Origin: Eledone cirrhosa
Taxonomy: Eukaryota
Reading direction: 5' to 3'
DNA: 64,000 nt
Assembly (NCBI GenBank): GCA_964016885.1
Contig: OZ024743.1
Coordinates: 231,508,001 to 231,572,000, forward strand
Shown here: positions 21,031 to 62,254 of the stretch, piece by piece
Layout of the letters: every line of letters begins with the position of its first letter
Numbering within the stretch: the stretch's first letter is position 1
Translations under genes and position numbers: made by a program
The notes under the pieces: generated by a model
The model's database searches: none
Seen by the model: only the letters and a program-made list of their open reading frames with translations
What the model was told of the DNA's origin: nothing

Positions 21031-21170
21031 ATTGTTTTACGATCGTTTCTAGGTAATGATAATACATCCTAACTATACTTCAATATCGATCTATGTAAGG
21101 TTAGTTACAAAATATCAGATAAAGAGAATATTTACTTACATGCATATCACCAGTTGTTGTCAAAAGCAAT
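21031..21170 (-). ncRNA. Hammerhead motif with U3-A8 core and long stem II insertion
   Basis: Reverse complement: attgctt TTGACAA [about 105 nt] GAAA cgatcg TA aaacaat. Confidence 0.6.
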
Positions 21171-21284
21171 AATAACTGTATTCAAAATTAGTAGTGAATT
21201 AGTATAATGTTTAGTTCTATGACCTTGTTTGGCGGTAGTTGAAAAACTAACCAAACAGATTGTTTTTTTCCATATGATGTTAAG

Positions 21285-22154
21285 ATGAAAAATAAATTCC
21301 CTATTGGACAAATCCCCAAAAAATTCTTCGAAATTCTACATAAACATTTTCCACCAAACCACAGATACCACCAAATATTTAACAGATATACTGTTAAATT
21401 CTCATACTCTACATCAAACAATCTCCAGCAAAAAATAAGCAACTACAACATTTATAAATTTAAAAATAATATGACCACACCGCCACAACATAATATAAAT
21501 AGAACTGCACCTTTTAAAAGGACAAATAATACAATCCTTCAACCTGGAAATCACAACCACCCAATTCACCAAGACAAAAACAACAGAACACAAAGTCACA
21601 ATACAACCATAACACTAAACCACCCACAAAACAACTTTCATTCTCCCGCTAACATTAATTACAATAGGAATAGCTCAACGATTAATGAGAATGGTATAGG
21701 TACCTCCAACAACCATCTTACGTATGGTTGTAATTGCAGTAATAGAAGCATTTGCCCCTTAACTGGCAACTGTTTGATTAATAATGTAATATATAAATGC
21801 ACTGTGTCTACTACTGACTCCAACAAAACATATATAGGATCGACATCAAACACATTTAAGAAAAGATTTTGCGCACGCTCTAGTAGTTTTAACAATACTA
21901 AACTAGCTAACACCACATCTTTAGCTGAAGCAGTAAATAACTATAAAAGGAACAAAATAGATTTCAAGCTATCGTGGAACCCCATTCTACAAAAAACTCC
22001 ATATTTTGGGAACAGGATAGAATGCAGGTTATGTTCAGGGGAGATCTTGGAAACTACTAAATCTAAGGACGATTTATTAAATAAAAGACAGGAACTGGTT
22101 ATAGTTTGTAATCACCGTATACGAAACACATTTAAAAACTATAAACCAAATTAA
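21285..22154 (+). CDS. PLE polyprotein C-terminus (thumb, Cys linker, GIY-YIG endonuclease); 5'-truncated, Neptune/Nematis-like
   Basis: KHFP..H..HQIFNR.TVKFSYS, CNC....CPL.GNC...NVIYKC, YIGST...FKKR, CRLC..E, LLNKRQE....CNH. Confidence 0.88.
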   Translation: MKNKFPIGQIPKKFFEILHKHFPPNHRYHQIFNRYTVKFSYSTSNNLQQKISNYNIYKFKNNMTTPPQHNINRTAPFKRTNNTILQPGNHNHPIHQDKNNRTQSHNTTITLNHPQNNFHSPANINYNRNSSTINENGIGTSNNHLTYGCNCSNRSICPLTGNCLINNVIYKCTVSTTDSNKTYIGSTSNTFKKRFCARSSSFNNTKLANTTSLAEAVNNYKRNKIDFKLSWNPILQKTPYFGNRIECRLCSGEILETTKSKDDLLNKRQELVIVCNHRIRNTFKNYKPN

Positions 22155-22817
22155 ATATTCTAAATAGCTACGCACTATAATTCTATATAGAGTAACATTT
22201 GTTAGTATCCCTTTCCCCTAATTATACGCATTCATGCTTATTTCTTAACTTTTAATGTTTTAGCTTCCTTAGATTTATGCGTTAATAACTAAGGGTAACA
22301 AGGTACACAACCACCCGTAATTGCATGAGTAAATATGTATCAATGTTTGTTATGGGAATATATATATACATATACATATATATATACATATATATATGTA
22401 TATATATATATATTTATACATATATATATATATGTGTGTGTGTGTGTGTGTGTGTGTGTGTGTGCGAGTATATGTGTATGAGTGTTTATATATGTGTGTG
22501 TGTACATGTATGTGTGTGTACATATATATATATATATATATATATATATATGTGTGTGTATGTGTTTGCATCTATTTATGCGTATGTATATTTTTAGTTG
22601 AGTATCAATATAACTTTACCTCTATCTATAATGTGGGTATATGCAGTATGTTATCTATGAAATTTATGCGTTTTGACTGTCAACATGTATTTATCTGAGT
22701 TTGATTATTTATACATAGACATACGTAAAAGTATTTTAAGGCGTATCATACGCTGTATTATACTAAGTACAATTTACCACACCGTACTATATTGTGTTAC
22801 ATTATATTATTGGATTG

Positions 22818-22995
22818 GCAGTATCAGTAGAGGGTCGGACGCCATGCTTTCCAGCATAGTTACGTCCCTTTACGATCTGAGTTCAAATCCCGCCGAGGTT
22901 GACTTTCATCCTTACGGGTCGATAAAATAAAGTACCAGTAATGCACTGGGTAATTGCTGGACTTGTGCCTAAAAAGTAGAAACAATTATATTATA
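22818..22995 (+). mobile_element. tRNA-derived SINE
   Basis: ggcagtatc.gtagagggtcggacgcc..gagttcaaatcccgccgagg..gtagaaacaatta. Confidence 0.85.
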
Positions 22996-23455
22996 TTATT
23001 GTATTATTGTATTTAATTATCTTATTATAATTTTCATCTTTTAATATACTATCTTTCCTAGCCATGACCTTAATTTATATTCACCTAAATACACCATACA
23101 ACACAACTCAACTTTTAATTTTTACATTCCTTTTAAAATTCACTTTACCTTATACATTCAACTATCCATTTGACAATCCCCTTCTTCCTAATAGATTTGT
23201 TATGGCAATTCTATTATTAACACCGTTCAACCATTCCTTTCAAAGGGACATGACCTCAACTAAAGGGAATTATGGAAAATGTGTATGTAGAATTTCGAAG
23301 AATTTTTTGGGGATTTGTCCAATAGGGAATTTATTTTTCATCTTAACATCATATGAAAAAACCAATCTGATTGGGTAGTTCTTCAACTACCTCCAAACAA
23401 GGTCATAGAACTAAACATTACACTAATTTACTACTAATTTTGATATATAATTATT

Positions 23456-60054: not shown

Positions 60055-60567
60055 CTACCCCCCCGGGTCATTATGGGGTTTGAGGGCGAGGTAAGTCCTA
60101 CGCAATCTATGTTTACATGCAGTAACCAGTTCATCTTTCTTGTTTAGGAGTTGGTCCGTCGAAAACAGCATTTGTAAAGTTTCCTCCGAGCATAAATTGC
60201 ACGGACGGCGTCCTCCCGTGTAAGAATTGGCTCTGGACAGTAATCTCCAAGTGAGATCATAGGTGATGTTGTTGTCCTTGAGGTCCCATATGTGGCCCGA
60301 AAGTGTAGTGGCGTGACGCCGGGCCGGGTTTCGGAAGGTATGTCTATGTTGGTATAGCCGGGTCTTGAAGTCACATGCGGTAAGTCCTATATAGGCTTTG
60401 TTGGAGGTATCCGTCCTCACGTTGCACTGGTAGATCACATTACGGTCTCTGCATCTATTGTCGAGTGGGCAAATAGATCTATCCGGGCAGTTACACCTCC
60501 TGGTCGGTTCTCCACTGCTATTTAGGTTATTTCTGCCATCGGGGTTGAGTTTTTTGTTGTTAGAGGA
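60055..60567 (-). CDS. PLE GIY-YIG endonuclease domain (truncated, uninterrupted)
   Basis: CNCPDRSICPLDNRC..NVIYQC, AYIGLT...FKTRLYQH, CNLCSEE, LLNKKDEL..ACKH. Confidence 0.9.
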   Translation of the reverse strand, partial: SSNNKKLNPDGRNNLNSSGEPTRRCNCPDRSICPLDNRCRDRNVIYQCNVRTDTSNKAYIGLTACDFKTRLYQHRHTFRNPARRHATTLSGHIWDLKDNNITYDLTWRLLSRANSYTGGRRPCNLCSEETLQMLFSTDQLLNKKDELVTACKHRLRRTYLALKPHNDPGG

Positions 60568-61492
60568 CCGAGGCTGCCCTTTGGCCCCATGTAGCCTTAG
60601 TACCCCCACTCCCCCCTCCCCTAGTCTTTGATAGATTTGGCGGACTCCGCCCTTTATAGCAGTTGGCTTAGACCCCGGATACTTGCCCCCCTTTTTCGAC
60701 CGCTCCCACTATTCTCTGTGCCCTCTTTATTTCTTAGTGGCACTTATGCCTTATTTTTTCGTTTCAGTATTTCTTGCTTCGCTTTTCTTCTGGGCGGGGT
60801 GGATTCTGAACTTATTTCTCCGTATTCTACCTTTATTTCGTACGAACTTTCATGTAGCTTGTTTTAGATCTTTTAGAGTTAGCATTAGTATATATTTTTC
60901 CCGGGACTCAGAATTATTATGTCGTACAAGTTCACTTTGCTGCACTGGGTCGTTGCTGGCCCGGGATGGAAACCTTTATTGTTTATTTCGTGGTAGTCTC
61001 TTTAGTATTTTGGCCCCTTTTGTTGACCAGTCACCGTATCATTTACGTACTTATACCTCTTAAAAGGGTCCTTGCTTAATTCGTCCCACCTAGTTCTTTT
61101 ACTTATTTCCTTATTTATTTATTTATTTATTTATTTACTTCTTTCTTTCTTTCTTTATTTTATTCTCGCCTAACAATAGCCTGACACCTAGGTCGTAGAA
61201 TTTAATTTTTTCTTTACACTTTTTTGCTTTTCTTCACTCTCAGTATTTTTTCTTTCCTATTTTTACCCCCCATTGTTCTACCTACCGTTCCGACTTCCTC
61301 CCCCTCCCCCTCCCCTGTATCTTCTTTGACCTCATGCCCAGCTGTAGCTGGCACTACCAACGCTTGATTGGGTCTACTCCACCCCCTCCCCTCTTTCTCC
61401 TACTGGCAGGTTTAGCCACCATCTCCCCTACTAATTTGCAACCACAGAATTACTACTGATTTTTGACAATCACTTTGACCATATATGGAATT

Positions 61493-61586
61493 ACCCCTTG
61501 AGAAGATCGGCTATTTAAATACCAGGATAAATGTTCATTTAGTCCAGAATTAGCCGTCGAAACGGCTTGAGCTCAGCTGTCGGGGT
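61493..61586 (+). ncRNA. Hammerhead ribozyme with U3-A8 core, GUC site after 61581
   Basis: acccc TTGAGAA ga(t)cggcta...tagccgtc GAAA cggc-ttgagctca-gctg TC ggggt. Confidence 0.8.
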
Positions 61587-62153
61587 CTTACTGGTTCCTA
61601 TATATATATATATATATATATATATATATATATATATATATATATATATATATATATATATATATATATATATATATATATATATATATATATATATATA
61701 TTTATATATATATTTATATTATATATATATATATATAAAAGGTGACGTGGTTGCCCAAACACTGTACGGCGTAATTCGGACTGTTTGTTTGTTTACAAAC
61801 AAACCGAACATTATAATAAATGTTCGGTAAACCGATACGTGCATATATATATGTGTGCATGTATGTATATATATACATACTACTCTACGTCTGTATACAT
61901 ATATGTATGTACGTATACATACATACTTACATTTAAGTAAGTGCCGTACTAAGAGTGAGAAATAAAATTTCGTTTTATTCTATTCCTTATATATATATAT
62001 ATATATATATATATATATATATATATATATATATATATATATATATATATGTATATACATACATATATATATATATATATATATATATATATATGTATAT
62101 ACAGTATAAAAGAGAAAACACAGGTAAGCATTAAGAGAAGGATTTAATCCAGG

Positions 62154-62254
62154 TATTTACGACCGTTTCATTGGTAGTGCAACCTTATATTGCTATACTG
62201 CAAATAGCAGCCACTCAATTATAATTGTTGTTCACAGTCCAAATTTTCAAAATA
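62154..62254 (-). ncRNA. Hammerhead motif with U3-A8 core in the inverted pLTR upstream of the RT ORF
   Basis: Reverse complement: tatt TTGAAAA tttgg...ccaat GAAA cggtcg TA aata. Confidence 0.6.

Follow-up and report, generated by a model that had tools for sequence, protein, structure and literature searches.

Hammerheads with a U3-A8 pair in Hydra-clade Penelope-like elements of Eledone cirrhosa, a core that has probably replaced C3-G8 more than once

A stretch of 64,000 nucleotides of the Eledone cirrhosa genome (GenBank assembly GCA_964016885.1, contig OZ024743.1, positions 231,508,001 to 231,572,000 of the forward strand; hereafter the window) carries eleven hammerhead motifs whose core reads UUGANAA instead of the canonical CUGANGA, the tertiary pair between positions 3 and 8 being U-A and not C-G. 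Very probably these are type-I hammerheads of the 3' ends of Penelope-like elements (PLEs) of the Hydra clade, and of short repeats without an open reading frame (ORF) derived from them, at which the element RNA would be cut as dimers, and U3-A8 has replaced C3-G8 repeatedly. The feature is real, the core is a known variant and the clade is a known clade; the proposal of an earlier note on this DNA, that the PLE subclade with a CNC..CPL..C linker had U3-A8 ancestrally, is refuted. What remains is modest, namely matched sister ribozymes with clean C-G/U-A swaps. Hammerhead positions are numbered partly by general usage and partly as in the papers cited.

The window is part of a 3.0-Gb assembly, is AT-rich and contains many TA repeats. 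It was scanned entirely, on both strands, with a strict type-I hammerhead descriptor that included four control cores. All ten UUGANAA sites of the earlier note (the U3-A8 rows of Table 1 other than that of family F) were found as described, and all fold as type-I hammerheads with a G12 box, a near-palindromic stem III and a GUH after the core; the decay of GAAA reported at 33.3 kb (to GAUA) and 34.8 kb (to UAAA) is correct as well. The strict scan gave five U3-A8 matches, four of them at those sites and one at +54425, and four C3-G8 matches, while the control cores C3-A8, U3-G8, G3-C8 and A3-U8 had no match on either strand of the window. The five repeat families previously distinguished (A to E) are real and all of them repeated, but a sixth, family F at 54425, had been missed. 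The 33/34-kb and 59/61-kb copies form one superfamily, 79-85% alike. A first look through the genome returned 413 candidates for C, 1519 for A, 674 for D, 1302 for E and 1742 for the unit of B, figures that are not copy numbers.

The copies at 30982, 54425, 58951, 61498 and 62250 pass the strict scan, and the other six of the eleven are damaged relative to their genomic copies: to the two with decayed GAAA, flagged correctly before, four are added, with changes in stem I (21163 and 31575) or stem III (23463 and 48430). The core, GAAA and UH with a paired 3-8 are complete in nine of the eleven, the remaining two being decayed in GAAA. At the base of stem II the pair 10.1-11.1 is G-C in families B, C, D and F; a C·A mismatch occupies this place in family A, and a U·U mismatch in family E, in every aligned copy. 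U3-A8 itself is present in 31 of 34 aligned copies of A, 22 of 24 of B, 38 of 39 of C, 31 of 32 of D and 31 of 31 of E, the others being uncovered or carrying single changes. A scan with Rfam gave no hammerhead among the best 150 of 287 matches in the window, which are dominated by microsatellite hairpins.

By their motifs, the hosts of families A, C, D and E are Hydra-clade PLEs. Craig et al. (2021, PMC8557442) define the clade by the motifs RWK and DKT, a CxCx5C linker, the CxxC and CxH beside E and N, and the lack of CCHH. An alignment of nine endonucleases (ENs), including those of A and C, shows the linker, the CxxC and CxH in these places and no CCHH, as do the ENs of D and E; the CX2-5CxxC linker and the CCHH of the Neptune and Nematis clades were absent from the nine aligned ENs. 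RWK and DKT precede the reverse transcriptase (RT) in the window element of family E, and the window copies of A, C and D are truncated before these positions. A near-complete ORF at locus L258, with U3-A8 hammerheads at both ends, has RWR, DKT, CxCx5C, CxxC..E and N..CxH, and no CCHH. Since this ORF and the window E element match the motif definition, the group with the CNC..CPL..C linker corresponds to the published Hydra clade. A Neptune identity, assumed at first, was abandoned after the motif comparison. In Pfam, three Hydra proteins were without family match, and RVT_1 and GIY-YIG were matched by an unrelated element at 50.1-51.5 kb.

At several independent loci a GIY-YIG EN is followed, after 0.3-1.4 kb on the coding strand, by the hammerhead of A, C, D or E, which supports the earlier attribution of these motifs to PLEs. 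The order EN then hammerhead on the same strand links 27 hammerhead loci in C, 24 in E and 7 in A, and D behaves likewise. Pairs of copies on opposite strands are inverted, 5'-truncated arms that end in TA repeats; such arms are typical of PLEs (PMC8557442). Families A, C, D and E have UUGANAA in place of the canonical CUGANGA, and their sister families have CUGANGA or CCGANGA. The window also contains five C3-G8 hammerheads (24384, 45739, 52437, 52879 and 57228), and the families of those at 24384, 45739 and 57228 are tied to the same linker type as the U3-A8 families. The CUGANGA core describes the Hydra families sampled earlier and is not diagnostic of the clade.

The distribution of the two pairs was analyzed by mapping core type on protein trees. 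The EN tree comprised 31 rows (7 U3-A8, 11 CUGANGA, 2 CCGANGA, 3 outgroup and 8 without an assignable hammerhead, left unlabelled); for 12 of the labelled rows the family was linked to its hammerhead at more than one locus. In 13 of the 20 linker-bearing ENs with an assigned core this core was C3-G8. U3-A8 required six changes on the EN tree, four of them forced by strong branches, and its label clustered no better than shuffled labels, 241 of 500 of which were as low. Family A grouped with the C3-G8 family F6 (99/96), and E together with L053 grouped with CUGANGA and CCGANGA families (100/100); a single clade of the seven U3-A8 rows was rejected by the approximately unbiased (AU) test (p-AU 2.6e-5). 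On the RT tree (17 rows, 13 labelled) five changes were required, all forced by strong branches, with A again beside F6 (100/99), D beside a CCGANGA family (99/98) and E beside another CCGANGA family (99/96). These trees make it likely that U3-A8 was gained or lost at least five separate times, and that it is not the marker of a single lineage.

It is very improbable that U3-A8 was ancestral in this lineage and that the C3-G8 families are reversions. Such an origin would agree with the presence of U3-A8 in at least five branches and with parsimony inside this genome, which ties the root states on the best EN tree, six changes being needed with either. About six reversions would still be required, however, a U-A root was favoured in 2 of 1000 bootstrap trees, C3-G8 predominates among the assigned EN rows as stated above, and U3-A8 is scattered on both trees. 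Moreover, C3-G8 is the pair in each of the 25 published Hydra families for which a hammerhead is listed: File S2 in Craig et al. (2021, PMC8557442) holds 26 Hydra rows, for 25 of 27 families from four phyla and from hemichordates, and all of them read CUGANGA. The descriptor used in that work required CUGANGA, yet just two Hydra families were left without the full motif. As all listed families are CUGANGA, the outside evidence favours C-G ancestry and, given the root tie inside this genome, the direction from C-G to U-A rests on these published families. C3-G8 would be the ancestral Hydra state, and U3-A8 would have replaced it several times independently.

The hammerheads themselves bear on how the core was exchanged. 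Those of A and F6 can be aligned over their full length with a mean column identity of 73%, and in ten rows the 3-8 pair is C-G in seven, U-A in three and unpaired in none, two stem I pairs being changed on both sides; 90.6% of the cells of this A group are paired, and 4 of its 16 pairs are changed on both sides. In the E group, also of ten rows, the 3-8 pair is again C-G in seven, U-A in three and unpaired in none, 7 of 13 pairs are changed on both sides, 89.2% of cells are paired against 33-52% in slid controls, and three cores (CUGANGA, UUGANAA and CCGANGA) stand in one homologous frame. Covariation of positions 3 and 8 and of the stems, as the earlier note had anticipated, is thus seen in A and E, the two groups covered, where the 3-8 pair is intact in 20 of 20 rows, a count that represents few independent events since the rows are related and that uses structures drawn from the same sequences. 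A Watson-Crick 10.1-11.1 pair was present in none of the ten A-group rows (C·A) and in none of the ten E-group rows (U·U in eight, A·A in two). Both A (23470-23576) and F6 (e.g. L220:6481-6635) have C·A at 10.1-11.1 followed by two pairs, and in both the stem II region measures about 100 nt, although their 3-8 pairs differ.

These alignments speak against a single origin of U3-A8 followed by its spread among families through swapping of 3' ends, a history in which the protein trees would be misleading and which is extremely improbable. The elements do insert into one another and form chimeric inverted junctions. Nevertheless, the A hammerhead aligns end to end with that of its C3-G8 sister F6 and the E hammerhead with C3-G8 and CCGANGA relatives, both in agreement with the protein trees, and clustering by sequence separates the U3-A8 hammerheads of one family from those of another. 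Being homologous to those of their sister families, the hammerheads of A and E, the two families examined in this respect, disfavour swapping.

Selection would keep positions 3 and 8 paired while tolerating either pair. A mismatched 3-8 pair was the main form in none of 30 hammerhead clusters with at least two copies, and mismatched cores were scattered singletons, three U3·G8 and one C3·A8 against 98 paired cores at a census score of at least 15. In a search for a family fixed in the U3·G8 intermediate, the copy of L061 had 39 relatives of 77-88% identity, with unreadable cores; a C3·A8 relative of family C at L221 is a single copy. In the abundant family F4, U3·G8 occurs in 3 of 28 listed copies with differing backgrounds and looks sporadic. 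These clusters and singletons, together with the role of the 3-8 pair as a tertiary contact of the active fold (PMC3088659), make it very improbable that the hammerheads serve as structural signals or are relics with almost no activity, their cores changing under relaxed selection. Such a view would fit the low in vitro cleavage of Penelope hammerheads (Cervera and De la Pena 2014, PMC4209133), a system in which hammerhead mutants did not block insertion (PMC11167929), and the fixation, in whole families here, of changes that slow activity (U4C and a non-paired 10.1-11.1). The repeated clean C-G/U-A swaps of a tertiary pair are instead indirect evidence that selection still maintains the active fold of these much-doubted retroelement hammerheads.

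Repeated replacement would proceed by double transitions, each fixed in one master copy and then amplified. Two hammerheads would pair through their palindromic stem III and cleave after GUH, the element RNA being cut as dimers at the predicted sites, with trimming of the transcript near the element 3' end as the likely role. In predicted folding, the stem III closure pair has a probability of 0.1 or less in B and D monomers and of 0.64-0.76 in the C monomer, and for B, C and an intact D copy the homodimer of lowest energy is a double hammerhead with stems I and III exchanged. Through these homodimers the ribozymes fit the dimer model already published for such hammerheads (PMC4209133; PMC6765202). 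Rather improbable is the suggestion that sister families shift among CUGANGA, UUGANAA and CCGANGA and unpaired 10.1-11.1 because slower or protein-dependent cleavage is selected, the core setting how much uncut multimer is available for copying; if it were true, the Hydra radiation of this genome would be a natural experiment in ribozyme tuning.

Several points weigh against repeated replacement and dimer cutting. The EN tree has only 136 columns; 8 of the 20 EN-core links come from single loci (L053, L258, L041, L054, L109, L199, L248 and L256) in a genome rich in nested insertions, and 4 RT rows were assigned to families via adjacency in inverted arms. In the 1000 bootstrap trees the root was tied in 701 and C-G in 297. 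The family alignments were built from best-hit searches, with a bias toward query-like copies. The predicted dimers of E, F and the damaged window copy of D contain no hammerhead fold, and that of A contains one just with a shifted stem II base. Finally, the hammerhead activity of an anole element is protein-dependent and its mutants leave in vitro insertion unaffected (PMC11167929).

Family B, and probably F, is without ORF, and short repeats of this type, with their hammerhead, are likely derived from Hydra-clade elements. Family B consists of partial head-to-tail tandems with inverted arms and one type-I hammerhead per unit, a sequence organization like that of non-LTR (long terminal repeat) retrozymes. 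No EN link was seen across the family B loci examined, the few PLE protein matches in them falling outside the units. Nearly all family B insertions examined end at unit position ~523 or at ~93-100 of the next unit, two fixed 3' ends ~80 and ~240 nt beyond the predicted cleavage site. For family F no EN link was obtained, since the search retrieved a neighbouring repeat instead.

The frequency of each core was estimated in a genome sample of 134 evenly spaced 10-kb stretches of contigs C1-C4 (1.34 Mb in total), six extra stretches beside the window being excluded from the count. The scan used self-devised scores with thresholds that were not set blind, a stricter earlier census having missed known U3-A8 copies, and the control was a single block-shuffled version of the sample. 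At a score of at least 15 it found 77 CUGANGA (in 39 stretches), 12 CCGANGA (10), 9 UUGANAA (4), 3 U3·G8 and 1 C3·A8, against a single U3·G8 and none of the other four after shuffling; at a score of at least 13 the numbers were 104, 13, 14, 7 and 2. A few of those 14 UUGANAA matches look like chance; the shuffle gave one U3-A8 at this score. Six of the nine at the higher score are tandem family B copies from two stretches. By homology search, 23 copies belonging to the six families of the window were recovered in the sample, a figure that includes decayed and partial ones. From the sample counts, and allowing for the real U3-A8 copies that the descriptor misses, U3-A8 is a minority core, roughly a tenth to a sixth of all cores, and the window is unusually rich in it. 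CCGANGA (U4C), of similar frequency in the sample (12 vs 9), predominates in four hammerhead clusters with several copies, with examples at L031:2265(-), L041:5737(+), L236:1949(-), L040:9885(+), L222:211(+) and others. The warning that descriptors limited to CUGANGA overlook U3-A8 holds for about a tenth of the sampled cores, and with the 12 CCGANGA added to the 9 U3-A8, against 77 canonical, such searches would miss about one fifth of the well-formed hammerheads here.

Table 1. Hammerheads, host fragments and related repeats of the window (positions in the window; signed position of the core for U3-A8 hammerheads)
Feature	Position	Strand	U3-A8 core	Description
Family A hammerhead	21029..21172	-	-21163	inverted arm; core 21163-21157; predicted cleavage after 21038; stem I damaged
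Family A Hydra-type ORF	21243..22154	+		5'-truncated; CxCx5C linker, GIY-YIG EN
Family A hammerhead	23454..23597	+	+23463	~1.3 kb downstream of EN; 107-nt stem II region; C15.2 mutated
C3-G8 family	23925..24417	+		Hydra-type EN fragment; hammerhead (24380-24417) ~200 nt downstream
Family B unit	30619..31901	+		ORF-less 593-bp head-to-tail unit, two units + 97 bp; retrozyme-like; in TA repeat
Family B hammerhead	30977..31066	+	+30982	intact; 8-nt palindromic stem III; predicted cleavage after 31061
Family B hammerhead	31570..31659	+	+31575	second copy; single stem I mismatch
Family C hammerhead	33297..33392	-	-33387	older subfamily; GAAA to GAUA
Family C EN	34103..34696	-		older subfamily; ~80% identical to 60-kb EN; one stop
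Family C hammerhead	34823..34918	+	+34828	older subfamily; inverted arm; GAAA to UAAA
C3-G8 hammerhead	45734..45789	+		second copy 57223-57278; family follows CNC..CPL..C EN at L049, L143
Family D Hydra-type EN	47703..48089	+		remnant, frameshifted
Family D hammerhead	48425..48466	+	+48430	compact; stem III departs from perfect palindrome of most copies
C3-G8 hammerheads	52431..52915	+		two, in abundant tandem repeat of ~440-470 bp
Family F hammerhead	54421..54465	+	+54425	sixth family; relatives in short tandem units; no EN linked
Family C hammerhead	58863..58956	-	-58951	intact; ~1.1 kb downstream of EN; arm ~80 nt longer than other arm
Family C Hydra-type EN	60055..60708	-		5'-truncated; inverted arm supplies start of frame
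Family C hammerhead	61493..61586	+	+61498	inverted arm; intact; at least 40 identical genomic copies
Family E hammerhead	62154..62254	-	-62250	U·U at stem II base; 4-bp stem I
Family E Hydra-type RT region	62480..63781	+		RWK + DKT, frameshifted; EN and sense hammerhead just beyond window end (L247)

Other repeats surround these elements. A possible degenerate C3-G8 minimal hammerhead lies at 54715-54760 (-), and copies related to it are found near 30345-30438 and 54049-54181. Positions 48670-52234 are occupied by a young RT-EN element from another Penelope clade, with a CCHH-type EN, long inverted arms and 99% identical copies elsewhere; it has no standard hammerhead, and a hammerhead-like remnant with a shortened core is seen at ~52045-52080. 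Inside the 3' region of family A there is a SINE-like repeat (short interspersed element; 22804-22994), a run of which stands immediately before the hammerhead core at L085:6035-6950, with a short AT-rich sequence repeated at the junctions. Positions 1-5914 and 13997-17621 hold several decayed RT copies of non-LTR retrotransposons, ~87-90% alike, and 9602-10012 and 11738-12711 hold fragments that we take to resemble hAT-type transposases. Nested inverted repeats at 28229-30345 include tRNA-like Rfam matches (28667-28731, -; 29060-29124, +) and are probably a tRNA-derived repeat. A 9-bp tandem array at 42066-43600 has several frames open (GDG or PSP repeats).

U3-A8 is here neither a new ribozyme, nor a new variant core, nor a clade marker. 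Natural U3-A8 covariation with activity in vitro, and a natural U10.1-U11.1, were described by Perreault et al. (2011, PMC3088659), as was a U4C viroid variant of lower activity that is still infection-competent. Those examples were scattered, whereas in the present animal genome both U3-A8 and U4C are fixed in retroelement families of high copy number. In the literature covered in part, C·A at 10.1-11.1 was not found and U4C appeared just as that slower viroid variant; neither U3-A8 or CCGANGA in Hydra elements nor a tally of repeated swaps was found in a literature coverage that is incomplete. The matched sister pairs (A vs F6; E vs L109 and F24) are ready test substrates.

Compared with the Hydra clade as described (PMC8557442), the elements have the same (TA)n targets, sense hammerhead near the 3' end and palindromic stem III, and in many of the listed rows stem II has a U on either side, as in family E. 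File S2 contains CUGANGA alone, whereas U3-A8 and CCGANGA, unlisted there, are present here, and the 3' regions can exceed those of the clade, with 0.3-3.7 kb from EN to hammerhead. Animal non-LTR retrozymes, ORF-less and proposed to be non-autonomous PLE derivatives (Cervera and de la Pena 2020, PMC7229834; Li et al. 2026, bioRxiv 10.64898/2026.07.22.740005), resemble family B, and probably F too, in being short ORF-less tandem repeats with one type-I hammerhead per unit; family B differs in its unit of 593 bp against the reported 150-450 bp, its U3-A8 core, and its short partial tandems with inverted arms. The closest precedent for the core is Schistosoma mansoni, where about 1,300 U3-A8 matches were published (Cervera and De la Pena 2014, PMC4209133) and where the supplement places a UUGAAAA motif next to a similar CUGAAGA motif of S. 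japonicum. The Cercyon-type PLEs of S. mansoni likewise have U3-A8, pseudo-LTR type-I hammerheads, a palindromic stem III and a proposed dimer activity; in contrast, the hosts described here are Hydra-clade elements with a stem III of 6-17 nt and stem II regions of up to 107 nt, and their core state is mapped on protein trees.

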